This document shows positions 3,200 through 57,044 of a stretch of DNA of 64,000 nucleotides, piece by piece; positions within the stretch are counted from its first letter, which is position 1, and the number at the start of each line of letters is the position of its first letter. Source of the stretch: a virus; IMG/VR virus record IMGVR_UViG_3300044712_001292, positions 39,000-102,999 of that record; one strand, given 5' to 3'. The notes beneath the pieces were generated by a model. That model was not told the DNA's origin. It worked only from the letters and a program-made list of their open reading frames with translations, and ran no database searches. Both the position numbers and the translations under genes were made by a program.

Positions 3200-3718
3200 A
3201 TGCGTACGACTGATATCCTGACCAAGGCTATGTGTAAGGCGGCCGCTGATTCGGGTGAGTCTGCTAGTTATCTCGATCAGCTCCCGTTCCTGGGCAGCAC
3301 GGTTCTCGGCGGTATCATCGGACGCCGCATGGGCGCTTCTGGAAGCGCCCGCCGCGGATTCGGAGCAACGCTTACAGGCGCTACGCTGGGTGGGGTGGCG
3401 GGAGTGAAGGCTCAGGACGCACGCGATTCAGCGTTGCGTGAGATCGATCGCCACGGCGACGCCCCGCTTGTTCAGGGCGCGAACGCAGCTATCGACGCTG
3501 CTGGGGCCGCCACTGAACGCATGCGCGACCCGTTTAAGGATACGCTGGCTCGGAAGCCGGAGCCGACCTTACTCGAGCGCGCTGGTAACGTCGCCGGACA
3601 GTACTGGCGGAATCTCAAGTCAGGGGATCCGCTGACGATTGCGGGAACCGGGGCCGCAGCTATACTCGCAGGCGTGCTAACGCACCAACTCCTCAAGAAG
3701 AAGCGCGCTCGCGCTTAA
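3200..3718 (+). CDS. Gly-zipper membrane-type virion protein
   Basis: GxxxG hydrophobic segments; N-terminal KAA; C-terminal GAAAILAGVLTHQLLKKKR. Confidence 0.7.
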   Translation: MRTTDILTKAMCKAAADSGESASYLDQLPFLGSTVLGGIIGRRMGASGSARRGFGATLTGATLGGVAGVKAQDARDSALREIDRHGDAPLVQGANAAIDAAGAATERMRDPFKDTLARKPEPTLLERAGNVAGQYWRNLKSGDPLTIAGTGAAAILAGVLTHQLLKKKRARA

Positions 3719-3733
3719 TAAAGGAACATCACC

Positions 3734-4510
3734 GTGTCTACGAAGCTCGAGAAGACTGCTCAGTTCCTGAAGAAAGTGGCCGCCGAGGGCGGCTCTATCT
3801 GGAACAAGAGCCTGTACGGTGGCCCAGAGGCCCCCTTCCAGCAGCCGAGTCACTACCCGGCTGAGGTCATACATCGCCTCCTTGCCGAGGCTGATAAGCT
3901 CCCTGAGGGCTCGGACGAGGCTGCCGCAGCTGCGAGTGCTCGGCAGGCGATCACTGAGGCCGGTGGTATGCACAAGCTCGATCAGGCCGGGATTGATCGC
4001 ATTGCGGTTCGCGCCGGTGCGAGCCCCGCCGACAAGAACACTCCGGGCTTCTGGAGCAACTATCGCGCAGCTATGGGCCGTGGCCACCTGGGAGCTACCG
4101 CTGCCACCGTCGGCATTGGCGCTGCAGCCGTTCTGGCCGGTGTGCTGACCTACAATGCGCTGAAGAAGAAGCGTACGCAGACAAAGACCGCCGGACTCTT
4201 CAGCTTCCGGCGGAGTAATTCGCCGAATGCCCAGGGCCCTGCTCCTACCCGCGCCGCAGAACGTACCCAGAAGGTCCGCGATCTCGTAGGCAAGAAGGTT
4301 CGTAATGCGGCGCTGCTGGCAGGTGGCGGTGGCGCCCTCGCCGGCACGGCCGCTGGCGCTGCCCTGGCCTCCCCCGGCGATACCGTCGCGGGCGGCCACG
4401 GTCTCCCCACCACAGGCAGCAACCTGGGGGACGCAGCTGTCCTCGCTGGCGGCCTGGGCCTCGGGGGAGCCGGCCTGTACGCGCTGTACCGCTCCCTGCG
4501 CGACGAGTAA
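3734..4510 (+). CDS. Gly-zipper membrane-type virion protein, partial paralog of 3200..3718
   Basis: SD AAGGA before GTG; GAAAVLAGVLTYNALKKKR; KTA and KVA motifs. Confidence 0.75.
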   Translation: MSTKLEKTAQFLKKVAAEGGSIWNKSLYGGPEAPFQQPSHYPAEVIHRLLAEADKLPEGSDEAAAAASARQAITEAGGMHKLDQAGIDRIAVRAGASPADKNTPGFWSNYRAAMGRGHLGATAATVGIGAAAVLAGVLTYNALKKKRTQTKTAGLFSFRRSNSPNAQGPAPTRAAERTQKVRDLVGKKVRNAALLAGGGGALAGTAAGAALASPGDTVAGGHGLPTTGSNLGDAAVLAGGLGLGGAGLYALYRSLRDE

Positions 4511-4523
4511 GCCAGGGCGCCTC

Positions 4524-4559
4524 GAAAGACCCTCGCTATTGGCGAGGGTCTTTTCGTTT
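4524..4559 (+). terminator. Intrinsic terminator-like hairpin
   Basis: AAAGACCCTCGC-TATTG-GCGAGGGTCTTT followed by TCGTTT. Confidence 0.7.
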
Positions 4560-6384: not shown

Positions 6385-7587
6385 ATGTCTGACACCTATC
6401 AAGCTCTCTGGACTATGTGCCCGACGATCGTCGCGGCTGTACTGAAGACGGCTTCCGCTGACGGGGTTGTTACCGCAGCCGATCTTGACACACCTGCTGC
6501 CGGATCACCCCCTCCCGCAGCCGTGACACCGCCGGCCCCCGCGCCGAAGCCCGTGACCCCTGCTCCTACGACCGGCCAGCTGGCCGAGTCGACCGATAAC
6601 GTCATTGCACCGTTCCATAGCACGTTAACTGAGATCGCCACAGGCAAGAAGTCCCTGATCACTCCGCTGAATTGGGGAAATCTCCAGCCCGAGCAGCTGG
6701 CGGTCGATAAGCTTCTGCGTACGGATGTCGATAAGCTGACGCCGCAAGAGCTGGCGCAGCAGACACGCACGTACCTCGCTCTTCAGAACAGCGGTTTTGA
6801 CAAGGCCATGGGCAACAAGCGCCTGTTTGCCAACCCATTCGCTACCGATCCAGCCGATCAGAAGAGCAGGCTGACGTTCGGCAACCTCTCGTCGCTGTAC
6901 AGTAAGCGCTATGAGCAGCTTAGCCCGGAGGAGGCCAAGGCGTACAGCGATAGCCTCGGAGACGAGGCAGAGAAGATGGGTTTGGCGCTCAAGGCCCCTG
7001 GGTTGATCAAGGAGAAGGTGGGAACCAAACTCGACGAACTGCATAAGGCTATTGCTGAGGTAGACAAGAACCCGGACGCCACGGGCTTCACTGACTGGTT
7101 CACGTCGTCGTGGGCGAATATGGCGGTGCCTGCCGGATTCCTGATGATGATTTTCGGCGGAAACACCGGGGCTATCATCGGTGGCCTGGCTATGGCTGCC
7201 GGCGGATACAACCTCTACAACAGGTACAGCACGTTGATGAAGGATCCTGTTGCGCAGGATGCTATCCACGAGTATGTCGCGAGTAATTTCAGCAAGGAGG
7301 CGCTGAAGAAGGTCGAGGAACAGTACGGCCCGCAGTATGCGCAGGCCGCGAATGATTTCGGCTTCCTCTCCCGGTACGGCTTTTTGTCGTCGGTACAGTC
7401 CGCCTACCAGAATGCCGGTGCCGGGGCTTACAAGTGGCTCGTACCCGGCGCTGATGAGAAGAACGTGAATGCGTTCCGCGCTCAGCTTGCTCCGAAGCCG
7501 AACGGCCCGAACACCTGGATAAATGACTGGTCCGGGAAGGCCTGGGACACGGTATCCGCACCCTTCCGGCAGACAGGGCAGCAGTAA
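6385..7587 (+). CDS. Hypothetical membrane-segment virion protein
   Basis: 400 aa; N-terminal KTA; hydrophobic hairpin AVPAGFLMMIFGGNTGAIIGGLAMAAGG. Confidence 0.75.
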   Translation: MSDTYQALWTMCPTIVAAVLKTASADGVVTAADLDTPAAGSPPPAAVTPPAPAPKPVTPAPTTGQLAESTDNVIAPFHSTLTEIATGKKSLITPLNWGNLQPEQLAVDKLLRTDVDKLTPQELAQQTRTYLALQNSGFDKAMGNKRLFANPFATDPADQKSRLTFGNLSSLYSKRYEQLSPEEAKAYSDSLGDEAEKMGLALKAPGLIKEKVGTKLDELHKAIAEVDKNPDATGFTDWFTSSWANMAVPAGFLMMIFGGNTGAIIGGLAMAAGGYNLYNRYSTLMKDPVAQDAIHEYVASNFSKEALKKVEEQYGPQYAQAANDFGFLSRYGFLSSVQSAYQNAGAGAYKWLVPGADEKNVNAFRAQLAPKPNGPNTWINDWSGKAWDTVSAPFRQTGQQ

Positions 7588-12300: not shown

Positions 12301-14114
12301 ATGTCGTCATGTACGATGGTGGAATGAAGACGGTAGCGGAGCTGCATCCCGGAGACCGGCTGACGGCCATGAGCCAGGACGGTGCACGCGTTCCGGTTCG
12401 TATCGCCGATATTACACCCTATCAGGCGGACGAGGAGTTCATTGCTGTCTACGACATCACCGTCGACGACACGCATCTGTACTGCGCGGGCGCAGCCCTG
12501 GTGTCCAACTCCAAGCGTATCAGCCTGCTTGATACCGGAACACTTCTCGCAGCGGGAGCCACGAACTTTCTAAAAGATGCGAAGCTGGTTCGCGGTCAAC
12601 GCAATGACGACTACTGGCGACAGGTGCGGCACGGCGAGACGCCCATGCTGCCTACCGGTGCGTTCGCAGATGAACAGTTCAAGTCGCTTCTGAAGGCTGC
12701 AGGGGTCAACGTCCGTGAGGCGGGAACGAAGGAGCAGCTCAGCCCGCTGCTCGATACCGATGTCGACCGCATGGCGTCACATGAGATTCAGAACGCGGAA
12801 ACGTTCGATTTCGAGACGATGCGTCCGGTCGAGGGCGGCCTCTTCGATACAGGCATCACAGGCGGTGCCGGTGGCAACAAGTTCGCCAAGATCACGCTGC
12901 CGGTGAAGGTCCCGCACCCACTCTTCCTCGATCCGATCCGCCGTATCCTGGGCCTTACTGGCAAGGAGCTTGATGCGGTTCTGATGGGAAAGGAGCAGCT
13001 GAACGGGGAGACAGGACCGGGAGCGGTTGAGAAGGCACTCGGGGAGATCGACGTCCCCCGCGAGATGGAGCTTGCCAAGCAGACCATTCGGACGGGGTCC
13101 GCCACCAAGCGTGATGCGGCCGTCAAGCGCCTGCATTATCTTGCTGGGCTTCAGAAGATGCATGTGAGCCCGCAGGATCTCATGGTCAGCAAGATAGCGG
13201 TCGTCCCTCCGCGGTACCGGCCTATCGTCCGTGGTCGTAACACGGACATGATCCATGATCTGAACTACCTCTACAAGGACCTGCTCGAGGCCCGCAAGAA
13301 CTACCAGGATGCGAAGGGTGTATTCGGTGAGGCCCATGACGAGTATGGCACTCTGATGAAGGCTGTGCAGGCGGTCACAGGCATCGAGGGTCCTGTAAAC
13401 CCCAAGACGGCTGAACAGGGCGTCAAGGGTGTTCTACAGTACGCGATAGGCCTCGGCACGAGCCCGAAGGCAGGCGGTTACCAGCGCAAGGTCATCGGTA
13501 CTGCGGTGGATACAGTCGGGCGTAGCGTCATCACCGCCGACCGCTCGCTCGGGCTGGACGACGTCGGCATCCCCGAAACGATGGCGTGGAAGATGTTCCG
13601 GCCGTACGTCATTCGGAGACTGGTCACGCAGGGCATGCCGCCTGCAGAGGCGCTGCAGGCTGTAGAGGACCGTACCCCTGCAGCGGCAGCCATGCTCGAT
13701 GAGGAGATGAAGGTTCGCCCTGTCGTCTACAATCGGGCACCGGCCCTCCACCGCTACGCGTATCAGGGGGCGTGGGCTCGACGGGTGCCTGACGACTCCA
13801 TCCACGTGCCATACTACACGCTGAAGGCGATTGGTGGGGACTTCGACGGCGACGCTATAAACATCCACGTGCCATCCAGTTACGAGGCTATTGAAGACGT
13901 CAAGGAGAAGCTCATGCCGTCGAAGAACCTGTTCTTTACAGGTAACTTCGAGACGCATTACGAGCCGACGCAGGATTATACGCTCGGGCTGCACCTGGCT
14001 GGTAAGATGGACCCGAGCCAGAAGCCCGTTACCTTTGCTAACGCGCAGGAGGCTAAGGCCGCCTACGCTCGCGGGCTGATCAACGCACGCACCCCGATCA
14101 GGATCCTGTCATGA
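9321..14114 (+). CDS. rpoB: Phage multisubunit RNA polymerase: beta fused to the N-terminal half of beta', with an intein
   Basis: beta motifs RLLMGARMTSQAVPL, GRNLRVGYM..EDAFVISE, GDKLSGRYGNKGVVS, YIMRLHH; beta' motifs VVPPRYRP, DLNYLY, NRAPALHR and catalytic GGDFDGD (13833-13853). Confidence 0.95.
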   Translation: MDAPVTYRRFDDIDGQRQDIFDLAKQSIGSMKPFSTPSHSVEIADVDYDDDYNPSIAEEKDAILKRKSLQRALKGTVRLKDAQGNVVEEQRMTLAHVPYLNSRGLFIRNGVPYAVRNQLRLRPGVYTRKQRSGGYESQFNVRPGTGRGFRVEMDPESGLFKMRVDQSTTKLYPVLRAMGVSDDDMRQAWGDDLFEKNAATSKGRDELDLSKLVRKLSGKDEDVDPETAAEALRNILQKSEVDEDTTELTLGERVARIEPRHILAATRKQLAVARGEAESDNRDSQAYQSFHAAQDLLAERMRRDATGAARNSFWKAARLQSLKNLQPGFMNPNIGSLFEGSGLALTVEDINPIDVYDTRQAVTRLGEGGMSRDAVSRDARNVQSSYIGVIDASRAPESDAIGVDLRVTDAAMRGSDGQLYTTVRNLKTGQLETLSARTLSTKSVTFPGEMGNEGKRVPAIRGDRITYVPKSEVDYEVVSPDDMASRASRLIPFPEGIKGQRLLMGARMTSQAVPLQEPEAPFVQTGNADGSSLHAAMGRDVGARMSPADGIVTKVTPDVIEMTGNDGQKHQIQLYNNYPTARKTVLHNDPVVQPGTVVKAGQMLARSNFTDDKGTFAIGRNLRVGYMVAEGDSIEDAFVISESAAKKLGAQAMYKADLDLGQIASTDKSSYNAVYAGKYSPQQLDQIDDDGVIKVGATVQKGDPLILAIGNKPQSLVGAVTKSAKSQVSDQSQVWEHAAPGIVTDISRTKDGIRVLVRSYDVTQVGDKLSGRYGNKGVVSAQIRPDDQMPIAADGKPLEAIINANGIISRVNPAALAESLLGKIVERTGRDPYIVKPFSTPEGIADFALNEAAKHGISETETVVDPRDGRKIPNVFVGNSYIMRLHHKAEGKISGRDQGTYTVDEYPARGGAEGCFIAEQPVLTRFGSMPIGDIVHLKAEVHVLTWSDVAGSWVYRPVTDWFEYTARASDLRVVELEPSTGITHNVFTATLNHNVVMYDGGMKTVAELHPGDRLTAMSQDGARVPVRIADITPYQADEEFIAVYDITVDDTHLYCAGAALVSNSKRISLLDTGTLLAAGATNFLKDAKLVRGQRNDDYWRQVRHGETPMLPTGAFADEQFKSLLKAAGVNVREAGTKEQLSPLLDTDVDRMASHEIQNAETFDFETMRPVEGGLFDTGITGGAGGNKFAKITLPVKVPHPLFLDPIRRILGLTGKELDAVLMGKEQLNGETGPGAVEKALGEIDVPREMELAKQTIRTGSATKRDAAVKRLHYLAGLQKMHVSPQDLMVSKIAVVPPRYRPIVRGRNTDMIHDLNYLYKDLLEARKNYQDAKGVFGEAHDEYGTLMKAVQAVTGIEGPVNPKTAEQGVKGVLQYAIGLGTSPKAGGYQRKVIGTAVDTVGRSVITADRSLGLDDVGIPETMAWKMFRPYVIRRLVTQGMPPAEALQAVEDRTPAAAAMLDEEMKVRPVVYNRAPALHRYAYQGAWARRVPDDSIHVPYYTLKAIGGDFDGDAINIHVPSSYEAIEDVKEKLMPSKNLFFTGNFETHYEPTQDYTLGLHLAGKMDPSQKPVTFANAQEAKAAYARGLINARTPIRILS
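12063..12509 (+). mobile_element. Mini-intein (149 aa, no homing endonuclease) in the RNAP beta C-terminal region
   Basis: Starts G|CFIAEQPV; block B TLNH; block F VYDITVDDTHLY; ends LVSN|S. Confidence 0.9.
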
Positions 14115-14881
14115 ACTTCTGGAAGCTTGCTCAGGATATACAGCTTGCGAAGCCGCCGCTCGATAGCCTCGGAGGGTTTCAGCAGCCGGCCCTGCTTGGC
14201 ACATACACGCGCAGAGGTGACCTCGTACTCGGCGACCCCGGCGCAGAGGCTATGCGGCATGCGCGTATGCAACCGCATTTCTATAGGTCGCCACACATGG
14301 TGGCCTCCGAACTGAATAGTCGTCGTGTGCCAGCAGCCGCGCTCCCGTATCCGGCGTCCATGCTGCCACCTGGCATGGCAGACACGGCTCCGCCGCAGGA
14401 TCCGACGAAGTCGTACCTGGACGGGTACATGACTAACAACGTCAGGCGCACGGTATCGGCTCCGCGTGACCCGCAGGGGAACGTATCGCTGTTGTCGCTG
14501 TATCACGAAAAGGCGCATCAGAGCGATCCGGCGGAACTCGTTACGCGTGACCTCGAGCGAGAGATTCCAGCAGCGGTAGCAGACACGTCTGCGTACATGC
14601 AGAATGAGCTGCCGTACACCCCAGCAGGCGTTGACAGGGCGCAGACGGTGGTGAACCGTATGGCGCAGTACGATACGTCTATACCACCGTGGGTTTACAG
14701 TCACATGCTCAAGTATGGGCCGAAGGTACGGTTCGACAGTCCGGAGGAGGACGCTAAGTCGGTGCGCGACTGGATACGCTCTCTGCGCAGGAACACGGAG
14801 CTTGGGAACAAGTACCGTGCGTGGGCCGCCTCTCCCGCCGTAGGACCTGTTTTTAAGGCACCGCCCGCCATCGCATGGTAG
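14111..14881 (+). CDS. Hypothetical protein with HExxH zincin-like motif
   Basis: LYHEKAH...E at 14504-14518; N-terminal MNFWKLA. Confidence 0.6.
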   Translation: MNFWKLAQDIQLAKPPLDSLGGFQQPALLGTYTRRGDLVLGDPGAEAMRHARMQPHFYRSPHMVASELNSRRVPAAALPYPASMLPPGMADTAPPQDPTKSYLDGYMTNNVRRTVSAPRDPQGNVSLLSLYHEKAHQSDPAELVTRDLEREIPAAVADTSAYMQNELPYTPAGVDRAQTVVNRMAQYDTSIPPWVYSHMLKYGPKVRFDSPEEDAKSVRDWIRSLRRNTELGNKYRAWAASPAVGPVFKAPPAIAW

Positions 14882-45351: not shown

Positions 45352-45803
45352 ACGGGTTTCTCGCAGCGTTGGACAACATCTCGTCAGCCCCGGTAAACGG
45401 GCTATCGACGACAGGAAATGTCGTGTGGCCATCGCCGTTTCTGGTGAGGTCCTACTCGATCGCCGAAAACGAAGTACGTGTCCGCCTGTTCGGTGACTGT
45501 CCGACACGCTTCATCCATTTCGTCAAGTCCATCCAGCTTCTGTGGCTGGTCGAAGACAGCGTACTGTCCGCAGCTATCGCGCAGACGGACCCTTCGATAA
45601 CGTATACGAGGGCGCAGCTGGTGGGTCAGTTCGAGGGTATTGCTACGGACTACCGCTACGCTGTTCGAGACGCTCTCGCTCAGCTTCCCGGCATAAACCC
45701 GGATATACTCGAAGAAGACCTCCGCCGCGTCTGGGATGCATCGATAACGCCGGCAGACAAGCTCGCAGCGTGTGTCGTTCATTTTGGTCGCATGTATGCC
45801 TAA
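45348..45803 (+). CDS. Hypothetical baseplate protein
   Basis: ATGA-coupled ORF. Confidence 0.6.
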   Translation: MNGFLAALDNISSAPVNGLSTTGNVVWPSPFLVRSYSIAENEVRVRLFGDCPTRFIHFVKSIQLLWLVEDSVLSAAIAQTDPSITYTRAQLVGQFEGIATDYRYAVRDALAQLPGINPDILEEDLRRVWDASITPADKLAACVVHFGRMYA

Positions 45804-47268: not shown

Positions 47269-47977
47269 GCCGGACCTCGACGCGGAGTGGCAGTCCTGGA
47301 AGAAGAGCCAGGACCCGCAGCGTCTTCGTCAGCTTGTGACAAAGCTGCAGCCAACCATCGGCAAAACGCTCGCTGCCTCCGGCATCCGCAGCCCAGTCGT
47401 CATCGACCGGGCCAAGCTGGTCGCTGCCAAGGCGCTGCACTCGTTCGACCCGACCAAAGGGGCCAAGATCAAGACGTACGTGGCATCACAGCTTCGTTCG
47501 ATCGTACGTGACGCTCCCCAGATCCAGGAGCCCCTGGTGCCGGGTCAGCGTTACCGCTCGGAGATGGCTGAACTCCACAAGGCTCACGCGCAGTTTGCTG
47601 ATGCCTTCGGCCGAGACCCGACCGATGAGGAGCTGTCAGAGACGACGAACATCCCGTTACGCAAGGTCGTACGTCTCCGGTCTGCTTCGCGTGCACGTAT
47701 CCCCATGTCCATGGTGGAGGAGGCTGACGACGACGAGGATGCCCCGGACGTCATCGGCAGCACACGCACGAAGTACGATGACTGGGCCGACGCCGTCTAC
47801 TACGGCTTGGGCGATATAGATCGCTTGATCATGTCACACAAGACCGGGTATCGCAATTATGAGGTACTCGATAACCAGCAAATCGCTCAGCGCCTGAATC
47901 TGACACCGGATACGGTGCAGCGGCGGGCGCAGCGCATTCAACAGCAGCTCGATGCCTTTCAGGAGCGTCGGGTATGA
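47252..47977 (+). CDS. Group-3 (FliA/SigF-like) sigma factor
   Basis: Region 2 FDPTKGAKIKTY; region 3 GRDPTDEELSE; region 4 HTH NQQIAQRLNLTPDTVQR. Confidence 0.9.
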   Translation: METDTEPDLDAEWQSWKKSQDPQRLRQLVTKLQPTIGKTLAASGIRSPVVIDRAKLVAAKALHSFDPTKGAKIKTYVASQLRSIVRDAPQIQEPLVPGQRYRSEMAELHKAHAQFADAFGRDPTDEELSETTNIPLRKVVRLRSASRARIPMSMVEEADDDEDAPDVIGSTRTKYDDWADAVYYGLGDIDRLIMSHKTGYRNYEVLDNQQIAQRLNLTPDTVQRRAQRIQQQLDAFQERRV

Positions 47978-48495
47978 GCAACCAGAACATCAATAACGCG
48001 GAGTACCAGGAGTGGGTACGGCGTCGGTCGAGTGTGCAGACCAAGCAGGATGCTGCGGTACTCGGTAGTTCGACAGCAGCTATCGGCGGCTCCTCCACAG
48101 GCGCCGTTTCATCAGCGTACAAGAACCAGCAGGCGGCAGACGGCGAGTTCGCGAAAGAGCTCAAGGTAGACGCCGGCTATGGGAGCGTGCCTTACGACAT
48201 GTACGTCGGCGCAGACCAGGGCGACATGGGATACCCGGTCACCGCGGGCATGGAGCAGCGCCTGCTTGAGGCTGCTACAAAGGCATCCTACGCCTATACA
48301 GACACCATCCCGACACAGGTGCAGGTGGCGATACTTCTGGCGGCGCGTAAGGCACATAACAATTGGAAGCAGCGGAGACAGCAGCTTCTTACGCACGCGC
48401 AGATGCGCTCGGCCAATCGACTGGCTATTGACGCCGATATGGCGAAGATGGCCGCCGGCATACCGCTTGACGGTGTAGAACGAACCAATGTCTAA
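47974..48495 (+). CDS. Hypothetical protein
   Basis: 173 aa coupled ORF. Confidence 0.65.
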   Translation: MSNQNINNAEYQEWVRRRSSVQTKQDAAVLGSSTAAIGGSSTGAVSSAYKNQQAADGEFAKELKVDAGYGSVPYDMYVGADQGDMGYPVTAGMEQRLLEAATKASYAYTDTIPTQVQVAILLAARKAHNNWKQRRQQLLTHAQMRSANRLAIDADMAKMAAGIPLDGVERTNV

Positions 48496-48871
48496 AGACA
48501 TCATACTCGACGTGACCCCAGATGGGCAGATGTACAGCCTAGGCGCTACGACCGAGAGCCCCCTCGATCGGACGCGCGGGAGGTTTACGACGCAGTTCCT
48601 GAGCACGCGAAATGAAGTGACCGGACGCGGTTCGGTGTTCATGGACAACCTCCTGCAAGGGAGCGTCCGTACGAACGCTGACATTCTGACGCTTGTAGCT
48701 ACTGCCACGGCTCAGATACGCAGTCTGGAACGGGAACTGTCCCGCGACGTCACGCTTCAGAGCGTAGACTTGCTTTCCATAGAGTTCATTGACAATAACG
48801 CCATAAAAGTAGGAGTTCGTCTGAACTCTACTGAGGGCAGTACGACCTCTGATATCGTGGTGAACACATGA
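48488..48871 (+). CDS. Baseplate wedge gp25-like protein
   Basis: 127 aa directly before baseplate J; FTTQFLS..GRGS..LQSVDL. Confidence 0.6.
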   Translation: MSKDIILDVTPDGQMYSLGATTESPLDRTRGRFTTQFLSTRNEVTGRGSVFMDNLLQGSVRTNADILTLVATATAQIRSLERELSRDVTLQSVDLLSIEFIDNNAIKVGVRLNSTEGSTTSDIVVNT

Positions 48872-50511
48872 GTATCAATACGACCGTCACCACTGAAGAC
48901 CGGGATACCGCACGGACTACGATCCGTGCCATCCTAACAGAGTCGCAGCCCGACCTCGACATCAGCACGGGCGGTGTCGTCGACTCGGTCATCGTCGAGG
49001 GCAATGTCGATGTCGCCGTACAGAACAAGGCGAACGTCGACAGCGCCTACCTCCTGCAGCAGATGCAGGCTATCGCCAATGGGACCGTGACCATCAGTGA
49101 TGAGCAGATGGACTCGCTGGCGTCGAACTACTACGTGACCCGGTACACGGACGATCCTGCACACGGTACGGCTGACTTCATCGTCCAGAGCGAGACGACC
49201 TATACCATCCCGAAAGGGTACCGTGTACGTTACGGGGACAGCTCGTACGTCACGGAGAGCGTCTACGTCATCTACCCATCCGGCACCCCCGGAGTGGACT
49301 TCAGCAACCCGACGAACGTCATGCTGCAGGCCATCTACGACGAAGTGACCGGGTACGGTTACCGGTTTACGCTTCCGATCGTCTGCGAGCAGACTGGGCC
49401 TGCCGGCGTGCGCGTCTCCGGCGATGCGCTGACCGCTGATATCGGGTTCACCGGCCTTGGCCGTATTATGGCTGCGGAGACGTTTGCTGGCGGTACAACC
49501 GCCGAAACAAACGCACAGCTCGCGACGCGAGTCATGTCGGGCCTGATAACGAAGACGCTGGGTGGCGGCCAAGACCAGATCAACGCTTTGGCCTCGAGCA
49601 TCTATTCGTCGGCGAAGGTCAGCGCTGTCGGTGTTGAAAGCGCCATGCAGACGCGTGGTCGCCTCAATCCATTCGGTATCAACACCGGTGGTAAGCTCGA
49701 TGTCTACATGAAGTCTGGCGCACTCAGCAGCACGATCCGTGTGGCGAGTGCGATCGTGACAAACGTCGGTCTACGGCAGGTGACCCTGACGCTGACCCGC
49801 GAGCAGGCTGCGGGGGCGTACACCTTTGCCGCAGTCGGACTAACCGGTGTATCCGGTATGACTGGCTCGATCACGACGGTCAGCACGTCGTTTGCCCAGG
49901 CAACCATGTCCGGTTTCAACCCGGAGATGGCAGCCATAGATCTACGCGGTTCAGCGAATACGACCGTGACGATCGTCATCACGGATAACCGTCAGAAGCC
50001 GGACCTGAGCTACGTTGTACCGATCACCACGCTGGGCCAGTCGCTTGCGGATACCTACGGCGTGCTTGTCAGCTACATGCCGGGCGTGCTGGACATCGCT
50101 GATGCGTTCTACAGCGACGACAACCGTCCTCCCGGCATCGACGTACTCGTCAAGTCCGCGCTCCCGTGTTCAGTGACCATGAACATATCGGCGGCCAAGC
50201 CTGTCAACTACAACGGACCGTCCGCCTCAGACCTCGCTGCTCAGATCGCGTTCGCCGTCAACCAGCTGCCTATGCGGCAAAAGTACCTCGATTCGTTCAC
50301 AATCAGCCAGATCATCAAGGATGCTGCTCCGCAGCTGACGATGGTAGGGCTGACGATGTCCGGGGGTATCACCGACGTGCAGGGTACGACAGTGCCTGTC
50401 TGGCAGACCGGAAACAAGCTGGTCATACCCACGCAGGTAACCGGCAAGGTGTCGTACGAGACGGTGTTCTTCACGACAAACCCGTCTCAGGTGGTGGTGT
50501 CTCTTGTATAA
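48868..50511 (+). CDS. Baseplate J-like (gp6) protein
   Basis: PDLDISTGG, IPKG, GPAG, AGGTTAETNAQL, GGKLDVY. Confidence 0.85.
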   Translation: MSINTTVTTEDRDTARTTIRAILTESQPDLDISTGGVVDSVIVEGNVDVAVQNKANVDSAYLLQQMQAIANGTVTISDEQMDSLASNYYVTRYTDDPAHGTADFIVQSETTYTIPKGYRVRYGDSSYVTESVYVIYPSGTPGVDFSNPTNVMLQAIYDEVTGYGYRFTLPIVCEQTGPAGVRVSGDALTADIGFTGLGRIMAAETFAGGTTAETNAQLATRVMSGLITKTLGGGQDQINALASSIYSSAKVSAVGVESAMQTRGRLNPFGINTGGKLDVYMKSGALSSTIRVASAIVTNVGLRQVTLTLTREQAAGAYTFAAVGLTGVSGMTGSITTVSTSFAQATMSGFNPEMAAIDLRGSANTTVTIVITDNRQKPDLSYVVPITTLGQSLADTYGVLVSYMPGVLDIADAFYSDDNRPPGIDVLVKSALPCSVTMNISAAKPVNYNGPSASDLAAQIAFAVNQLPMRQKYLDSFTISQIIKDAAPQLTMVGLTMSGGITDVQGTTVPVWQTGNKLVIPTQVTGKVSYETVFFTTNPSQVVVSLV

Positions 50512-51946
50512 ATACAGTGACGTAACCGACTCCGTCACGCTTCAGCCACAGCAAGTGTGGGAGGGGCTGGATTCGTTCTGGAGGACGAAGGTCGTCAAGT
50601 CCGATGCTGACCTCGTCAAGTATCAGACATTCGCCACACTTGTCGTCTGCGCGGACACGGTTTCACGGTCGAAGCACTTCATCGACGCACAGGGCATCGC
50701 GACGCTCGAGCCCTATAATATCGTGCCCTGGTATCCGCTGATACTCTATAGGGATCAGCTCGCCAATCTGTCGTACGTCGTCTACGGTGGCCCGTACGTC
50801 TACGATAGCCCACCTGACATCGTGTACGGCGAAGCTGGAGACCCGACATTCACGTACCCCGTACTGCCGACGTTTGCCGAGATACCGACCCTCTACGATA
50901 GCGTCACTTCGACGTCGCTTGTGCTCGACGGATCGATGTTCTCGTACGACCGTTCCCGGCAGACACTGACATTCCGTGTCGACCCGTTCACGTTGCTGCC
51001 GGCCCGCAAGACGGCTTCTGGTCGTGACTACCTTGTTCTGTGGATGCGTAACCCGGCCCTCGATCTGCAGGTCCCCTTCGACTGGACCGGGTGGGTCGTC
51101 AAGATGAGCGGAACGTCGACGCCTGCGTATGTCCGCACGCTGCAGGAGCTCTGGAGCCTCGACGTACGTGCCCCGGCCCTCGGTCCCTATAAGGTTGGTG
51201 CGTGTGCCGGCGGCGGGTTCCCTGTCGCGAAGAAGGCCGGTACGGTACTCGACATCCGCACAGACGGCTACCAGCGCATCGTCGTCATCGACGAGCTGGT
51301 GTATACCTTCCCTCAGGCGCTCGCTGCCTCTGTCAGCATCGGCGACCGAGTTGTTGCAAACCAGCCCCTCTGCGCAGGCATTACGTTCTACGCTGGTATC
51401 GAAGCTGCTTCCGCCCCACAGCAGCGGCTACCCGGCATCGCGTTTGTCGTACCTCTCTCGAACGGCGGCATCGCCACACTGTTCGCCCCCAATGAGACGC
51501 TCGCCTGGTCGTTCGACGCCATGCGGCCGTCACCGTGGCGGTTCCCGTTGGGCGGTGAGGTATCTGACGTCGAGGCATACTGGACCGACCGGAACGTCGA
51601 TCTATCAACGTACTACCCCGGCCTCGTGAACGGCCAGCCTGTCAACCCCATGCAGTTGCTGGTCTCCGATCTCTGGAAGAACGCGCTGACCGTCGCTTCT
51701 GTCGATCTGACCGCTGTGACCGGGGAGGCTATCGGGTTCGTCGATAGAGCCGTGCTGGCGCTCTCACCGTCGACGTATCTCATCGTTCAGCAAGACGTTG
51801 GAGATGTAGAGGACAGCATCGACATGGGCTCGAGCCCCGAGAACGTCGGATACGGGTACCACACGTCGGCCCCTTCAGACACCATCTCCGTTGTCGGTAC
51901 AGACCTCATCCTATCTGACTACGCTCCGATCGTGACCCTATCCTAG
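50504..51946 (+). CDS. Baseplate wedge (gp7-like) protein
   Basis: 480 aa following baseplate J; TTG start. Confidence 0.6.
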   Translation: MYKYSDVTDSVTLQPQQVWEGLDSFWRTKVVKSDADLVKYQTFATLVVCADTVSRSKHFIDAQGIATLEPYNIVPWYPLILYRDQLANLSYVVYGGPYVYDSPPDIVYGEAGDPTFTYPVLPTFAEIPTLYDSVTSTSLVLDGSMFSYDRSRQTLTFRVDPFTLLPARKTASGRDYLVLWMRNPALDLQVPFDWTGWVVKMSGTSTPAYVRTLQELWSLDVRAPALGPYKVGACAGGGFPVAKKAGTVLDIRTDGYQRIVVIDELVYTFPQALAASVSIGDRVVANQPLCAGITFYAGIEAASAPQQRLPGIAFVVPLSNGGIATLFAPNETLAWSFDAMRPSPWRFPLGGEVSDVEAYWTDRNVDLSTYYPGLVNGQPVNPMQLLVSDLWKNALTVASVDLTAVTGEAIGFVDRAVLALSPSTYLIVQQDVGDVEDSIDMGSSPENVGYGYHTSAPSDTISVVGTDLILSDYAPIVTLS

Positions 51947-51955
51947 CCCTTGCGA

Positions 51956-51983
51956 TGGCGTAACCACTAACTCCCTATAGACT
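51956..51983 (+). promoter_or_regulatory. Putative promoter TGGCGT-16-TAGACT, 6 nt before ATG 51990
   Basis: Fixed-spacing motif. Confidence 0.55.
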
Positions 51984-51989
51984 TCTATC

Positions 51990-52526
51990 ATGCGTGACAG
52001 CACTCCTACGCTCCGTGGCTATGTCGAGGTACGCAACGAGAGGGGCGACGTCGTTCGCGCCAAGAACCTCGTCGTTTACACGGGTGGCGACATCATCGCC
52101 AAGCTGCTCGGCGGGTCGCCCGAGTACCGGATCTCGCACATCTATTTCGCCTACGAGAACACGGCAGGCGCTCCAGTGCCGCCGGTTCCGGCTCGAACCG
52201 ACACGGCCGCCATCTTCCACTCGCTGGCAGCGCCGTTCGACTATCTGCGCGCACCTGTACTCGTGCCTCCGGCGTTCTCAGCTTCCGACGTCAACCATAA
52301 CTACAATCAAGCTGCCTTCACCGCGATAGCGTCCGCGGTATCGGGTATGCACGGCGTTCCGTTCGGCGCGATCAACAACAGCAAGGTTTACGCGCTTGGG
52401 CTCGTCGCGGCACCTACTGGCGCTGCTGCTGGCGACATCCTCTACGCGCATTTCGCGCTTCCGGCGGCCCTTCCTGCGGCTGGAAGCGGCCAGATCTCTG
52501 CTACGTGGATGACGGAGGCTGACTAA
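51990..52526 (+). CDS. Baseplate/fiber attachment protein
   Basis: LRGYVEV..KNLVVYTG..IAKLLGG. Confidence 0.6.
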   Translation: MRDSTPTLRGYVEVRNERGDVVRAKNLVVYTGGDIIAKLLGGSPEYRISHIYFAYENTAGAPVPPVPARTDTAAIFHSLAAPFDYLRAPVLVPPAFSASDVNHNYNQAAFTAIASAVSGMHGVPFGAINNSKVYALGLVAAPTGAAAGDILYAHFALPAALPAAGSGQISATWMTEAD

Positions 52527-54265
52527 TGGCTATCTACCCGCCGGTTATCCCGGGCGTTGTAAACGGTGGGCCGGTCGAGGCCTCCTATACGAATCAGGCT
52601 GCGGTAGCGCTCGCTCAGCGGACCGACTGGCTGCGTGAGCAGCTGCTGGCGTTAACGACGTCCACGTCGACGTGGCTGCGTGGGCAGGCCATCCAACCCG
52701 GTGTTGTCGACGGCACTCCGGTCTACTTCGACAACGTCACCTCAACCTACAAGCCAGCTCAGGCAGCGGTCGACAACAACGACTTCGTGACTGCGGCCGC
52801 ATCTGCTGTCGTCGAGGGCATCGCTGTCAACGTGTCCGGTGGCGTAGCGGACATCGTTCTGGGAGGGCGCGTCTCGCTGACAACGCTGCAGTGGGCGGCG
52901 GTCTTCGATACTGCTATTTTCGGAACCGGTGAGGTGTTCCTCAGCACCGTAGCAGGCAAGATTTCGCTGGAGCCAGGCTCCCTCGGCATCTCTCTGGGCA
53001 ACATGCGTGCAGACGGCACGCTGATCCTGCGTGTACCGAACAGCGGTCCCTTCCTGGGGCACATCCACCTGCAGCGGTTCCTGTCAGGCAACCCGGCTGG
53101 TACCGTTGTAGATCCGCCGCCCGCTACCCCGCAGACGATCGCCGTACCGAATCCGGCTGTGCAGGGATGGCTGCCGGCTACAAACGTCTACTTCCCGGGG
53201 TACGTGGTCGGCGTGCAGATCCCTGTGGGCGCTGTGTTCGGCTATAATATCCAGCACCCCTCCGAGTCTGCGCTGCGCGACATCTTCCCGATGATTCCGC
53301 CGACGAACGCACAGTTCTCGCAGTCAGGTCTCATCCTCGGAGACAGCAAGGTTGTCGTCAACCAGTACGGCGTCTGGTGGATGGATAACAGCTACGGCAA
53401 CGCCCCGTGGCCGACCAACTACACTGCCAATCTGCCAGCGCCGGCTCCGGAGATAACGCTCTGGACGTCGCGGCTGACTGCCGACGTTTCGCTGTCTGAG
53501 ACGATCATATCCGAGCTCGTCAACGAACTCGCAAACGGTCTTCTCGCTTCACTCGGCGTAACCCGTATCATACCCGGTGACAATACACTTACGGTGTCAG
53601 GTCAGAATGGCGACAACACCAATGGGTGGTACGGGGCAGTGTCCATCTTCAACTCTGGCGTGAAGACAGCGCAGCCCAGCGGTGGTATCGGCATAAGCGG
53701 CTCGCTGGGCGCGGCCCCGCAGCTGCGTGGAAACGTCGTGCTTCGGAGCATCGCCTCGAGGCCTGCTCAGTTCCTCTACAACAAGTTCACCGCGCCCCAG
53801 ACGACCGATATGGTGCTGGCGACGACAAACGGTGTTCCGATTGGCGTGGATATGGGCCTCTACGCCCATGGTCTTGGCGCAAACGCAGCTGACTACATCG
53901 ACTTCATTCTGACGTCAGGGTCTGAGTTTGCTGTGGCCGAAGAGCTGTCGTTCACCCTGGACATCGCGCTTCTGGTCGACCGCCCCGTTGCCGCGCCGAC
54001 CAGCAAGACCTTCCAGCTGCTGTTCTATAGCGTGGATAACGGATCCCCGACCAGCTCGACTTCCCTGGTGCGGACGGAGGACATCACCGTCACCGACGGC
54101 ACGCCGGGCCAAGTGCAGCGGATCACGGTGTCTTCCTTCGCCGACGTCAAGTTGGGGGACAAAAAGGGCTGGATCCTGCGCATTCAGAACGGCATCGGCA
54201 TCAGCGCCCTGGCTGCTGGTAAGCTGCGGGTGCTGAGCGTGACCGCCAACCTGGTGGCGCCGTGA
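52526..54265 (+). CDS. Tail fiber/baseplate-associated protein
   Basis: NQAAVALAQRTDWLRE fiber-type N-terminus; FLSTVAGKI cement-like domain. Confidence 0.65.
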   Translation: MAIYPPVIPGVVNGGPVEASYTNQAAVALAQRTDWLREQLLALTTSTSTWLRGQAIQPGVVDGTPVYFDNVTSTYKPAQAAVDNNDFVTAAASAVVEGIAVNVSGGVADIVLGGRVSLTTLQWAAVFDTAIFGTGEVFLSTVAGKISLEPGSLGISLGNMRADGTLILRVPNSGPFLGHIHLQRFLSGNPAGTVVDPPPATPQTIAVPNPAVQGWLPATNVYFPGYVVGVQIPVGAVFGYNIQHPSESALRDIFPMIPPTNAQFSQSGLILGDSKVVVNQYGVWWMDNSYGNAPWPTNYTANLPAPAPEITLWTSRLTADVSLSETIISELVNELANGLLASLGVTRIIPGDNTLTVSGQNGDNTNGWYGAVSIFNSGVKTAQPSGGIGISGSLGAAPQLRGNVVLRSIASRPAQFLYNKFTAPQTTDMVLATTNGVPIGVDMGLYAHGLGANAADYIDFILTSGSEFAVAEELSFTLDIALLVDRPVAAPTSKTFQLLFYSVDNGSPTSSTSLVRTEDITVTDGTPGQVQRITVSSFADVKLGDKKGWILRIQNGIGISALAAGKLRVLSVTANLVAP

Positions 54266-54639
54266 CGTACTCAGCTACCATCCAGAAACAGGTAACGGCG
54301 TCGTACACGAGCTGTCCGACACTACCGGCCATCCTGCAGATGTCGGTTCAGAGCGTTGTCGGTTTCTTGGACCTCGGCCTGTTCGTCTACCGGATAGACC
54401 CTGATACGGGATCGGAAGCGTTCAGCCACGTAGCGACCGCCTGCGACCTGCAGGACTACCTCTATAATGGCACATCTGGTACGTTCGTCCGTAGAGCGTC
54501 GATGAGCAAGACCTACTTCGACGCCTCGGCCGCTAACGCCGGCATCGCGGAGATCGAGCTCGCGATTCAGAGCCTATGCAGCATCATGGAACAGATCAGC
54601 GTTCTATCGGCTCCGACAACCGTAACCATCAGTTCGTAG
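54262..54639 (+). CDS. Hypothetical virion protein
   Basis: 125 aa, GTGA-coupled. Confidence 0.6.
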   Translation: MTYSATIQKQVTASYTSCPTLPAILQMSVQSVVGFLDLGLFVYRIDPDTGSEAFSHVATACDLQDYLYNGTSGTFVRRASMSKTYFDASAANAGIAEIELAIQSLCSIMEQISVLSAPTTVTISS

Positions 54640-54896
54640 CCGTAGACCACGCGTACCTCGTCCGTCTAGCGCAGGATGATCGGTACGCGTGGATGTCATC
54701 GATACGGGCTCTTGCGACGTTCAGACCCGCGTCGACAGGCTGCTGCGGGAAAACGGCTATGCCACCTATACCGAACGAGGTGTTCGGTCGCATCGCCAAT
54801 AACCCGGCATTCGTAGATGAGCTGCTGGTCTTGAAGGCCAAGCTCGGGGCTGATCGCCTGATCGTCAACGTATCTGGCTATCGAGACACCTTGTAG
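54576..54896 (+). CDS. Hypothetical protein (GCCG motif), start uncertain
   Basis: Fills the space up to the convergent gene. Confidence 0.45.
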   Translation: MQHHGTDQRSIGSDNRNHQFVAVDHAYLVRLAQDDRYAWMSSIRALATFRPASTGCCGKTAMPPIPNEVFGRIANNPAFVDELLVLKAKLGADRLIVNVSGYRDTL

Positions 54897-56074
54897 AGCG
54901 TCACCGTACGCCCGTCAGCCAGGCGCTTGACGTGCAGAGTCCCGCGAGACGGCGAGTAGTACGACATCGTGCACGACGGCGCCCCGCTCTCCGTCAGCTT
55001 GCAGCGGATATCCTGAGCGATCTCATCTCCAGCAGGTGCGGCCGCGTGCTCCTCTTCAGCACGCAGATAATCGTCCGGTGTTCCGAACTCCGGAGCATGC
55101 TTGACGACATGCGTGTCGCGGTTTTCGGGCGACGTCCACTCCGCAGACTTGTCCTGCTTACGAGCCTTCGCCTCCATCTCGTTGGCTATCTCGTGAGCCT
55201 GTGCGTACGGCATGCCTTGTGCCCGCATGAGAGACCGTTCCACGATCTCATGAAGGACGATCTTCCGCTTGTCGCTCTCTTGCAGGTCTTTCTCGACCCA
55301 GATCTGCTTCTTGGGGACGTAGTCGTTGGCCTCGCTGTTGCTACCGCCGATGAAATCGATGTCCTTCTTGTTACGGATCTGGTTGCCATCGACCTCGACG
55401 ATCTCGGTGCCATCGGGAAGCAGTTCTTTGGCAGACTTGACGAAAGGCACCTGTATGCCGATATCGCGTAGCTGGCCCAGCATGACCTGGGTTATCTCTT
55501 CGACGCGGTTATCGATCTCGTTAGACGACTCCTGCTTGCTCATCCACGACGCCGCGAACAACGCCGGATCGGAGGTCTCCTTCGTATTCGGAGGGATGTC
55601 CTTGACGAAGGAGAGGGTCTGTGGCGCGAATGAAATGCCTTCGTCATTGAGAACGACGCGGATGTACCGCTTGATCGGATCCGCCCAGCGGTCCTGCAGG
55701 CGGCTCACTGGAGCCGGGTCTGCCATCTCGATCTCGGTTACAGCCCACGCCACGTCGATAGCCGGTGGGATGTCACGGTACGACCCGACGCCACGACGGC
55801 AGAGCGCGTTGCAGACCTCATCGAACACCTCGACGTCCGTGTAAACCAGATCGGTCGTCAGAGCCGTTATCATCCCCATAAGCTGATCGTAGACACGACG
55901 GGGCATCTCCACGTCGTAGTCCTGCTTGATCTGCATCTGAATGGTCTCGCCCTCCCAATTGAGAGCCTCCGTACCATACGAACGCAGCAACAGGCTGACG
56001 AGAACGGTACCGAACGTCGGCTTTTCGCCGGTCAGGTACGGAGCAGCACGCCTCTTGTAAGTCGCGAGGATCAT
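54878..56074 (-). CDS. Three-domain protein: N-terminal domain, HExxE-H metal-binding domain and toxin/RNase-like C-terminal domain, separated by KSA
   Basis: KSA at 55438-55430 and 55150-55142; IVLHEIVERSLM..AH; HVVKHAPEFG..YY..G..VTLYK. Confidence 0.7.
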   Translation of the reverse strand: MILATYKRRAAPYLTGEKPTFGTVLVSLLLRSYGTEALNWEGETIQMQIKQDYDVEMPRRVYDQLMGMITALTTDLVYTDVEVFDEVCNALCRRGVGSYRDIPPAIDVAWAVTEIEMADPAPVSRLQDRWADPIKRYIRVVLNDEGISFAPQTLSFVKDIPPNTKETSDPALFAASWMSKQESSNEIDNRVEEITQVMLGQLRDIGIQVPFVKSAKELLPDGTEIVEVDGNQIRNKKDIDFIGGSNSEANDYVPKKQIWVEKDLQESDKRKIVLHEIVERSLMRAQGMPYAQAHEIANEMEAKARKQDKSAEWTSPENRDTHVVKHAPEFGTPDDYLRAEEEHAAAPAGDEIAQDIRCKLTESGAPSCTMSYYSPSRGTLHVKRLADGRTVTLYKVSR

Positions 56075-56090
56075 GTCCGCGCGGACAGAC

Positions 56091-57044
56091 TTAGCTGAGG
56101 ATCTTGGACAGGACGTCCGCGTCCGTGCGGGGCAGCGTCGGCAGTACGTCGATCAGCTCGTCGGTCGACATGGTCGACAGCGCAGGGGATACCGCCGCGA
56201 GGGCTTCCTTCCGCAGTTGACGTACGTCGAGCTCGTGACCGTTGACCAGCGACACGGTGTACCGCTGCTCGTGAGCCACCTTGGTCAGCTCGCTGGCGAT
56301 GAGGGCGTCACCGATGGCTTCTTCGGGCAGGGTGCCCGTGAAGCCGGCTAGGGTGTCGTAGGTGTCGACCGCAGCACAGGCCACCTTGACGAAGTCAGGG
56401 TTCGACCGGAGAGACGGGTCGCTGTACGCACTCTCGATGACCTGAGCGACCTTCGCGAACGCCTCCGAGTTATCCGCCTGCAGCGACTGCTCACGCTCGA
56501 TCAGCAGGTTGTCGAGGCCATCCTCGTCGAAGGCACCGAGGGCGGCGGCCTTCTCGAGGTAGCGCTGGACGTACTCGGGCAGCACCACGTGGTGCTGAGC
56601 CGCCTTATGCAGCAGGTGCTGGGCGGCATCGTGCCGGATGTCGTAGGGGAAGCTCGTACGGCTGTCATAGAAGGCTATGGCAGCCGTTGTCGTCGAAGCC
56701 GGATCATAGGCAGCGAACTTACGCACGGTACGCGCGCCCTTGGCGTCATTGATGTCGATGCAGACCGCGTAATCCGAGTCGGTCAGCTCAGGTACCGTCA
56801 TCAGCTCCGCGTACTTGCTCTTCACACGCGCACACTCGTTCTCGATCTTCCAGAACCGGGCGTGGTGGATGACGTCTTCCATCTCCGATCCAGACGCCTG
56901 CTTGATCAGGGCCTTGACGAAGGAGACATAGGTTGACTCCTTGGTGCGGAAGTCATAGTTGCCATCCTCCGAGATCGAAGCGGACTTGACGAAGTCCGGC
57001 GCACCGGTAGCGCGAATGACCTTGGCGACAGAGGGAGTTATCAT
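56091..57044 (-). CDS. K-x-A-rich hypothetical (head-associated) protein
   Basis: Likely start MITPSV at 57044; KSA, KQA, KAA and KVA motifs. Confidence 0.7.
   Translation of the reverse strand: MITPSVAKVIRATGAPDFVKSASISEDGNYDFRTKESTYVSFVKALIKQASGSEMEDVIHHARFWKIENECARVKSKYAELMTVPELTDSDYAVCIDINDAKGARTVRKFAAYDPASTTTAAIAFYDSRTSFPYDIRHDAAQHLLHKAAQHHVVLPEYVQRYLEKAAALGAFDEDGLDNLLIEREQSLQADNSEAFAKVAQVIESAYSDPSLRSNPDFVKVACAAVDTYDTLAGFTGTLPEEAIGDALIASELTKVAHEQRYTVSLVNGHELDVRQLRKEALAAVSPALSTMSTDELIDVLPTLPRTDADVLSKILS

Follow-up and report, generated by a model that had tools for sequence, protein, structure and literature searches.

The window analysed here is a 64,000-nucleotide stretch of phage DNA, bases 39000-102999 of the 103-kb virus contig IMGVR_UViG_3300044712_001292 in IMG/VR, with a GC content of 60% and genes that lie almost all on the plus strand. 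Between positions 3200 and 31603 it carries a head module of 24 proteins, among them a prohead maturation protease, Ala/Lys-rich scaffold-like proteins, and the major capsid protein (MCP), in which the pattern Lys-x-Ala (K-x-A) recurs as the core of a fuller motif, hydrophobic-x-K-x-A-[A/S/G/E]. A sequence-only reading had proposed K-x-A as a capsid-targeting and maturation signal shared by about 20 head proteins. The motif is found here to be specific to the head module and conserved in related phages, and it is probably recognized by the phage's own serine protease, whose modelled catalytic domain has the fold of herpesvirus assemblin and T4 gp21. Protease-driven head maturation and cleavable capsid-targeting leaders are textbook features of T4 and the phiKZ group, in which, to our knowledge, every mapped site ends in Glu; what is new is the predicted Lys-x-Ala specificity, the maturation system itself being known. 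A DNA-level search of 50,697 phage records returned no match to the window, and relatives were reached through their proteins only.

K-x-A sites in the head module

Coordinates written with two dots refer to the plus strand unless stated otherwise. The protease gene (26191..27486; 431 amino acids, eight K-x-A) encodes a catalytic domain (about residues 46-223) and, behind it, a helical tail of 210 residues. Its sites stand before the domain (K35, 26293-26301), directly after it (K220, 26848-26856, in SLRKVASHG, with the motif at residues 220-222), and along the tail (K247, 26929-26937; K284, 27040-27048; K389, 27355-27363; K410, 27418-27426). The adjoining Ala/Lys-rich protein (27548..28747; 399 amino acids, 14 K-x-A) matches no PHROG or Pfam family, and its position and composition suggest that it is the scaffold; its conserved sites are K15 (27590-27598), K146 (27983-27991), K235 (28250-28258), K269 (28352-28360), K378 (28679-28687), and K393 (28724-28732), the last lying four residues from the C-terminus. 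A small helical protein (28773..29192; 139 amino acids, eight K-x-A) contains K7 (28791-28799) and K59 (28947-28955), both kept in 8/8 orthologues, and an all-helical protein (23395..24681; 428 amino acids, 12 K-x-A) contains K15 (23437-23445), K38, K242 (24118-24126), and K292 (24268-24276). The 728-residue product of 19336..21522, a homologue of gp218 of Salmonella phage Arash, has seven K-x-A, including K201 (19936-19944) and K481 (20776-20784), each conserved in 8/8 orthologues. The MCP (29914..30852; 312 amino acids; phrog_2522, major head protein) carries its site close to the N-terminus, as K25-E-A27 (29986-29994, GQTKEAQDM). The number of sites that the sequence-only reading gave for individual proteins was in every case at or below the true number.

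Short N-terminal leaders ending in the motif are borne by a further group of proteins, for none of which a PHROG or Pfam family was matched. They comprise the orphans 3200..3718 (K13-A-A15, 3236-3244; no BLAST homologue in relatives), 3734..4510 (K7-T-A9, 3752-3760, and K14-V-A16, 3773-3781), 14111..14881 (K5-L-A7, 14123-14131), 15547..17268 (573 amino acids; K8-L-A10, 15568-15576), and 24678..26198 (506 amino acids; K12-H-A14, 24711-24719; no BLAST homologue in relatives), together with 6385..7587 (K21-T-A23, 6445-6453), 14919..15545 (K9-R-A11, 14943-14951, and K15-L-A17), and, at the border between head and tail genes, 34954..36237 (K12-V-A14, 34987-34995). The N-terminal strings quoted in the sequence-only reading, MNFWKLA, LEKTAQFLKKVAA, VLKTAS, LAEKLA, and LVKHA, were all located in the sequence. 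Placement near the N-terminus is the most striking feature of the motif: hydrophobic-x-K-x-A falls within residues 1-28 of 10 of the 24 head-module proteins against 1.23 expected, compared with one of 22 tail proteins (34954) and none of 27 upstream proteins. A short N-terminal leader that ends in the motif and is common to unrelated proteins is the arrangement by which a T4-type capsid-targeting sequence is recognized, and it is present here. Apart from the homologues of portal, RNA polymerase, protease, MCP, and glycosyltransferase, the proteins of the head module are orphans.

Enrichment was assessed in three gene sets, namely the 24 head-module proteins (3200-31603), 22 tail proteins, and 27 proteins encoded in the upstream 38 kb of the same contig, with per-protein shuffles and 15-residue block shuffles, which retain local Lys/Ala richness, as null models. 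Under per-protein shuffling the head module has 93 K-x-A against 66.8±7.2 expected (z 3.6), whereas the tail proteins have 23 against 18.5±3.9 and the upstream proteins 29 against 29.4±5.1; the excess over a composition-matched null that would be expected of a head-protein signal is thus confined to the head module. Block shuffling leaves the head-module excess in place (z 3.7) and gives 49 hydrophobic-x-K-x-A against 18.0±4.1 (z 7.6, a value inflated by the definition of the extended motif on the same data). When the 400 spaced pairs are ordered by z, K-x-A comes fourth and L-x-K, which belongs to the same motif, second; no excess is seen for KA, K-xx-A, K-xxx-A, or A-x-K. The dipeptide AE is over-represented. 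The flanks of 108 head-module K-x-A favour Leu or Phe two residues before Lys (39 against 12 expected), Val at -1 and +1, Ala, Ser, or Glu at +3, and Glu or Asp at +4, while none of these preferences was seen around 51 tail and upstream K-x-A. The hydrophobic residue two positions before Lys, overlooked in the sequence-only reading, is as informative as the residue after Ala. The block of tail sheath, tube, and baseplate genes (38865..54639, beginning with the phrog_279 sheath at 38865-40862) served as an internal negative control, with K-x-A at expectation and no flanking preferences; its supposed sparseness in K-x-A holds in the sense that no excess occurs there, but there is no depletion. 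Similarly, the figure of about 20 proteins is right as the number carrying a site, about 13 of which are backed by conservation or N-terminal position.

Five head-region proteins contain no K-x-A at all, namely the portal homologue (1310-3163; 22% identity to Arash gp204, 3e-44) and the products of 4573-6378, 22610-23398, 29225-29884, and 31004-31603, for which about 6.8 would jointly be expected from composition. This may reflect avoidance of the motif where a protein must stay intact; the five were picked post hoc, and the Arash portal has four K-x-A.

Conservation in relatives and exchange of leader-bearing genes

Seven IMG/VR contigs of 73-216 kb, retrieved through the capsid protein, show the same gene order; their MCPs are 71-82% identical to that of the window, and their other head proteins only 25-60%. 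One of them, G001, is a complete 191.5-kb genome with terminal repeats and was analysed in full. The MCP K-x-A stands at the same place in 7/7 relatives. Over 15 orthologue alignments, Lys and Ala of the motif are kept jointly in 45% of comparisons, which ranks K..A third of 180 spaced pairs for joint conservation, after only G-x-P and F-x-G, whereas singly Lys (0.45) and Ala (0.43) are among the less conserved residues. Conservation is higher within the motif than outside it for both Lys (0.56 against 0.43) and Ala (0.60 against 0.41; p 7e-6), and purifying selection acts on the pair. In the logo of the 25 sites kept in at least 75% of orthologues, information is found only at -2 (Leu 40%), 0 (Lys), +1 (Val/Leu/Thr), +2 (Ala), +3 (Ala/Ser/Glu), and +4 (Ala/Asp/Glu). 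Orthologues of the scaffold-like 27548 protein, 29-45% identical to it, keep its conserved sites in 7-8 of 8 cases, and six protease sites are likewise kept in 7-8 of 8. In the 23395 family (33 homologues), K15 is invariant, A17, K242, A244, and A294 are at least 90% conserved, and K15, K242, and A244 are among the best-conserved columns. Several kept sites form islands within gapped, unalignable linkers, such as K-[VTLI]-A-[SG] at residue 242 of this family. In G001 the head module (21 genes) has 105 K-x-A against 69.1±7.4 expected (z 4.9) and the remaining 183 genes 246 against 235.9±13.8 (z 0.7), with hydrophobic-x-K-x-A occurring 46 times against 18.4 in the head module and 92 times against 70.5 in the other 183 genes, and the extended motif 27 times against 6.2 and 34 times against 21.4, respectively. 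Few genes elsewhere stand out, these being the orthologue of the 56091 protein described below and genes at the edge of the module.

Eight window genes (3200, 3734, 4573, 14111, 15547, 24678, 31004, and 34954) lack a BLAST counterpart in the relatives, and six of them bear a leader, the products of 4573 and 31004 being free of any K-x-A. In matching slots of the relatives, unrelated genes begin with the motif. In G001 the gene in the position of 14111 starts with MLGHLYMTKVAV, the positional counterpart of 15547 with MPKLGRLAFRKVAEAAE, the counterpart of 34954 has RLYYKLAAEAAA, and ..AVIKTAETW is also among the G001 starts; the slot of 24678 is occupied by genes starting MSFAKQASE (G001) and ..HDAFAKQAAE (..AFAKQAAE; contig G007), and contig G003 has ..ALKKVAQ in the place of 34954. 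This is in keeping with the description of the leader-bearing genes as swappable. A related exchange is seen within a two-part protein on the minus strand (54878..56074), whose conserved 215-residue N-terminal domain ends at FVKSA (55430-55438); its G001 counterpart has EKTAA at the aligned spot and unrelated sequence beyond. Because unrelated slot-mates carry a leader and the part of the 54878 protein behind a kept K-x-A is replaced, the tag outlives the genes to which it is attached. A search for fused or split genes with the break at a K-x-A, as a marker of the mature end, yielded no genuine case, the apparent fusion of 22006 and 22610 in G007 not being a true one.

Away from the head module, a K-x-A-rich protein of 317 amino acids is encoded on the minus strand (56091..57044), with 11 K-x-A, the first at 56979-56987 (residue 20). 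Nine of the 11 are kept in its 36%-identical G001 orthologue, including K20-T-A22 at the same place. The long open reading frames 56091-57164 (minus strand) and 56959-59412 (plus strand) overlap head to head at 56959-57164, and the ATG at 57044 is taken as the true start of the minus-strand gene on the basis of the G001 alignment and the end coordinate used in the sequence-only reading.

The protease and the bond it may cut

The only family match of the protease is to phrog_18299, head maturation protease (2.9e-10). Its AlphaFold2 (AF2) model contains a confident domain at residues 46-223, with a predicted local distance difference test (pLDDT) score of 82-94 over residues 50-210. Aligned with VIA-align, the model matched the varicella-zoster virus (VZV) protease best (Z 11.0; root-mean-square deviation 2.8, 114 residues aligned), followed by T4 gp21 (Z 10.7; 2.9, 129 aligned) and the human cytomegalovirus protease (Z 8.3), the next unrelated match scoring 6.2. 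Foldseek alone gave weak results, with the best protease rows at E of about 0.5, and only the exhaustive structural search was clear. According to these model comparisons, the catalytic domain has the herpesvirus-assemblin/T4 gp21 fold. Sequence comparisons gave no protease match: hhalign found nothing against T4 gp21, Pfam gave no family at E<=1 for 30 members of the protease clade, and a sequence-profile search of the PDB returned no protease, only designed coiled coils and BAG domains. The clade thus lies within the assemblin/gp21 fold and outside the curated families (Peptidase S77/S21), and none of its more than 600 homologues carries a functional name in its source.

S151 and H100 are invariant across 30 homologues as little as 30% identical, with H87 and H177 at least 90% conserved; the spacing of these candidate catalytic residues resembles that of the H77/S153/D178 triad of the SPN3US protease (PMC5694885). 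In the same alignment, K35 and A37 are invariant, and K220 and A222, like the C-terminal block YxxYK[VL]AF, are at least 90% conserved. The segments of pLDDT below 50 (residues 1-38, 222-235, 242-244, and 382-386) border K35, K220, K247, and K389. Between the tail of the protease and the scaffold-like protein, similarity of the kind expected from a herpes-like nested arrangement is limited to the K-x-A strings.

Two further features of the enzyme were observed. Residues C161-x2-C164...C175-x-H177 (residues 161-177, window positions 26671-26721) are invariant or nearly so in the 30 homologues, and the cluster resembles a zinc-binding knuckle set into the assemblin-like fold; we know of no equivalent in T4 gp21 or the herpesvirus proteases. 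Secondly, the 634-residue protease of contig G003 (IMGVR_UViG_3300023202_000336) contains an intein (PF14890; ...YVINGIAVHN|S) in the SMGS-SQ block, a few residues after Ser151, and a second homologue contains a LAGLIDADG domain (PF14528). Inteins are commonly inserted in active-site motifs, and the position of the G003 intein supports Ser151 as the catalytic serine.

The same shuffle test applied to T4 gp67, gp68, gp21, and gp22 as a method control recovered the known [LI]-x-E motif (31 against 12.8, z 6.0). In five scaffold-like proteins of the present phage, K-x-A is found 53 times against 22.3±4.0 (z 7.7), while [LI]-x-E (16 against 15.7, z 0.1) and [ASG]-x-E (37 against 39.5, z -0.5) give no signal, so that K-x-A occupies the statistical place of the T4 cleavage motif. 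Lys and Ala are the sole near-invariant positions. The residue after Ala is small (A/S/G) or Glu. An acidic residue is not kept at conserved sites, which read KRAAE, KRASA, KRAGA, and KKASA at the N-terminus of the scaffold-like protein and KVASH, KVATM, and KVAFA in the protease. Herpesvirus assemblin cuts YLQA-T and VQA-S, with Ala at P1 (PMC4498786), and SPN3US gp245 cuts after A-X-E (P3-P2-P1), with Ser preferred at P1' and mostly at N-terminal propeptides (PMC10052503). A cut after Ala is the best reading because the i/i+2 layout corresponds to the P3-x-P1 arrangement of T4, SPN3US, and the herpesviruses and the small residue after Ala to a P1' Ser; by this analogy, Ala is likely P1 and Lys P3. 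The possibility that K-x-A is merely the front of K-x-A-x-E, with a phiKZ-like cut after Glu, was considered and rejected, the acidic residue being unconserved and A-x-E unenriched. A literature search found no Lys-x-Ala or Ala-P1 phage prohead protease, which, since few subscription journals were covered, is a weak sign of novelty.

Set beside the known maturation systems, the predicted one shares features with each. It resembles that of T4 in the fold of the protease, the neighbourhood of portal, protease, scaffold, and MCP, the two-residue i/i+2 code with many scaffold sites and one near the MCP N-terminus, and the short leaders, closed by the motif, with which unrelated proteins begin. Unlike T4, it has K-x-A instead of L/I-x-E, and its protease shows no detectable sequence similarity to gp21 and adds the helical tail and the conserved CxxC...CxH cluster; what is proven for T4, both cleavage and targeting, is predicted here. 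With phiKZ gp175 and SPN3US gp245 it shares a large phage with multisubunit RNA polymerase encoded among the head genes, a motif on many head proteins, mostly as N-terminal propeptides, predicted self-processing, and a preference for a small residue at P1', which is Ser in SPN3US (PMC10052503). The two differ in that A-x-E is unenriched here, the MCP is small and unrelated in sequence, and the leaders have 7-37 residues, while several SPN3US propeptides exceed 100 (PMC5694885). Herpesvirus assemblin (MEROPS S21; R-site and M-site V/L/I-x-Ala|Ser) is the best structural match, and its P1 Ala corresponds to the Ala predicted at P1 here, which is followed by Ser or Ala. The putative window site SLRKVA|SHG falls exactly at the end of the catalytic domain, where the helical extension begins, in the manner of the R-site, and IMAKVA|ALKK lies a few residues from the scaffold C-terminus in the manner of the M-site (PMC4498786). 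In contrast to assemblin, the second fixed residue is a Lys, predicted at P3, rather than an aliphatic one, the scaffold has a gene of its own and shows no detectable similarity to the tail of the protease, and the sites number dozens per virion proteome rather than two to four.

The reading favoured here, that hydrophobic-x-Lys-x-Ala-(Ala/Ser/Gly/Glu) is the recognition motif of the phage's own assemblin/gp21-fold serine prohead protease, is considered probable. During prohead maturation, the protease would cut most likely after Ala, with Lys at P3 and a small residue at P1', and would shed both a 37-residue piece at its own N-terminus and its 210-residue helical tail. The scaffold-like proteins (27548, 28773, 23395, and 56091) would be chopped into short pieces, the capsid protein would lose 27 N-terminal residues, and about ten proteins with nothing else in common would be relieved of leaders of 7-23 residues. 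On the model of the T4 capsid-targeting sequence, the leaders probably also bring their proteins into the prohead, which would make the tag transferable to new genes. Several points weigh against this reading. Neither cleavage products nor mature N-termini or packaged proteins have been seen in this phage or its relatives, and the virion data for Arash consist of coverage percentages and annotation without peptides, from which no neo-termini can be read. The catalytic residues cannot be mapped by sequence onto those of T4 or the herpesviruses, hhalign and Pfam being empty. The T4 core proteins have a mild K-x-A excess of their own (z 2.1), so that part of the raw enrichment is helix background, and the extended motif was defined and tested on the same data, though replicated elsewhere. 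In the AF2 models, K15 and K292 of the 23395 protein and K284 and K410 of the protease, all of them kept sites, fall within confident helices, a position that suits binding no less than cutting; K242 of the 23395 protein is in a loop.

The helical placement of these sites is what lends weight to a different explanation, in which K-x-A forms the centre of a short amphipathic helix that docks proteins onto the scaffold, portal, or shell for incorporation into the prohead; the motif itself would stay uncut, and proteolysis would take place elsewhere or not at all. The hydrophobic residues at -2 and +1/+2 suit an amphipathic face, and the sequence of the protease tail matches in the PDB only designed coiled coils with LKKIAQ repeats. 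Docking alone, however, leaves unexplained the invariant sites that flank the catalytic domain at disordered boundaries, the sites in variable gapped linkers (K242 of the 23395 family), the 8-14 copies per scaffold with irregular, non-heptad spacing, and the lack of any other motif in the statistical place of the T4 L/I-x-E; it is regarded as unlikely as a full account. Nevertheless, a docking role may exist, alone or beside cleavage, as in the T4 capsid-targeting sequence, which serves for both. It is also improbable, but conceivable, that the protease reads K-x-A and cuts another bond, after Lys or at a Glu or Asp one or two residues past Ala. The HK97 protease cuts after Lys, and the T4 and phiKZ enzymes are Glu-specific; Glu and Asp are enriched at +3/+4, AE is over-represented, and cleavage after Glu is the rule for every phage enzyme of this fold that has been characterised (PMC10052503, PMC5694885). 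This is countered by the lack of conservation of the acidic residue at conserved sites, by the unenriched [ASG]-x-E and [LI]-x-E, and by the information at -2, 0, +2, and +3, which fits P5-P1' around Ala|X better than Lys|X.

That there is no dedicated signal, and that the excess arises from Lys/Ala-rich helical composition and the helix periodicity of scaffold-type proteins, is very improbable and already disfavoured. The scaffold-like proteins are indeed 20-23% Ala and 10% Lys, and the small excess in the T4 core proteins points in the same direction, but the excess survives block shuffles, does not extend to KA, K-xx-A, K-xxx-A, or A-x-K, and is accompanied by flanking preferences missing from the 51 non-head K-x-A, by joint conservation of rank 3/180, and by N-terminal placement in 10/24 proteins against 1.2 expected. 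The interpretation first proposed is supported in part: the motif is real, selected, and specific to the head module, and occurs on leaders, scaffold, MCP N-terminus, and a protease of gp21/assemblin fold, the Ala-P1/Lys-P3 specificity being favoured only. The further proposal, of an internal cargo that is injected into the host, finds no support in these data; a sole indirect hint is the detection in Arash virions of homologues of the portal, RNA polymerase, 19336 protein, protease, and MCP.

Occurrence in cultured phages and wider meaning

The motif recurs in cultured phages that encode members of the same protease clade. In Salmonella phage Arash (181 kb), the protease gp222 is 39% identical to that of the window and has GLTKQAAAA at residue 30 and VLEKVANHQ at residue 218; K-x-A occurs 10 times in gp220 (2.9 expected), eight times in gp223 (2.9), and seven times in gp225 (1.8), and the MCP gp226, 27% identical, has GLVKEAGAA at residue 27. 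Vibrio phage D69 shows an Arash-like pattern including the MCP site, with approximately zero sites in its tail genes. Bacillus phage G has GLVKTAAKV at residue 43 and ILEKVASKS at residue 248 of gp19, and its gp7, gp11, gp14, and gp21 are K-x-A-enriched. In mycobacteriophage Flabslab (Bixzunavirus), gp92, a 1369-residue protease fusion, has K28-H-A and K219-T-A at matching places, and K-x-A is its most over-represented spaced pair. All four phages keep K-x-A before and just after the catalytic domain. That the motif accompanies the protease clade in phages whose hosts belong to three phyla points to a reader encoded by the phage rather than by the host. Flabslab gp92 is annotated as hypothetical, with the protease domain in its N-terminal 220 residues; in cluster C mycobacteriophages, a cut at the K-x-A at residue 219 would release the protease domain.

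Multisubunit RNA polymerase genes sit between the portal and capsid genes of the window, in the form of a large beta/beta' protein (9321-14114, found by Pfam search) and a beta' C-terminal piece (17433-19310, Pfam Rpb1_5), whose Arash homologues are gp206/gp216. The proteins detected in Arash virions (PMC10585845) include gp218 and gp220-225 along with the homologues of the portal, the protease, the MCP, and the two RNA polymerase proteins. The RNA polymerase beta homologue is the most abundant protein detected in the particles, with 3516 spectra (PMC10585845), which is consistent with packaging of the polymerase in the Arash virion. The beta proteins of Arash and D69 start with MPK[SK]AS, that is, with K-x-A at residues 3-5, and the window beta protein is without such a start. 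Directly after the capsid gene lies a gene for a GT41-family (O-GlcNAc-transferase-like) glycosyltransferase (31645-33159; Pfam 8.4e-39), which is kept in three relatives and is a possible virion protein glycosylase.

Extended to the protease clade as a whole, with its more than 600 homologues in uncultured 150-216-kb phages, Arash, D69-type phages, phage G, and the cluster C mycobacteriophages, the proposal is that these gp21/assemblin-fold enzymes cut after Ala with Lys at P3 and that a leader of 7-37 residues acts as a portable capsid-loading tag, a generalization that is offered tentatively. The prediction can be tested with existing phage stocks, since Arash, D69, phage G, and the cluster C mycobacteriophages all carry the motif. 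If it is true, the leader would provide a short programmable tag for loading foreign proteins into the capsids of cultivable phages, and mature ends and head-loaded proteins would be predictable from sequence alone in many large phages. In specificity, and not in fold alone, the clade would then be the missing link that ties phage and herpesvirus maturation proteases together.

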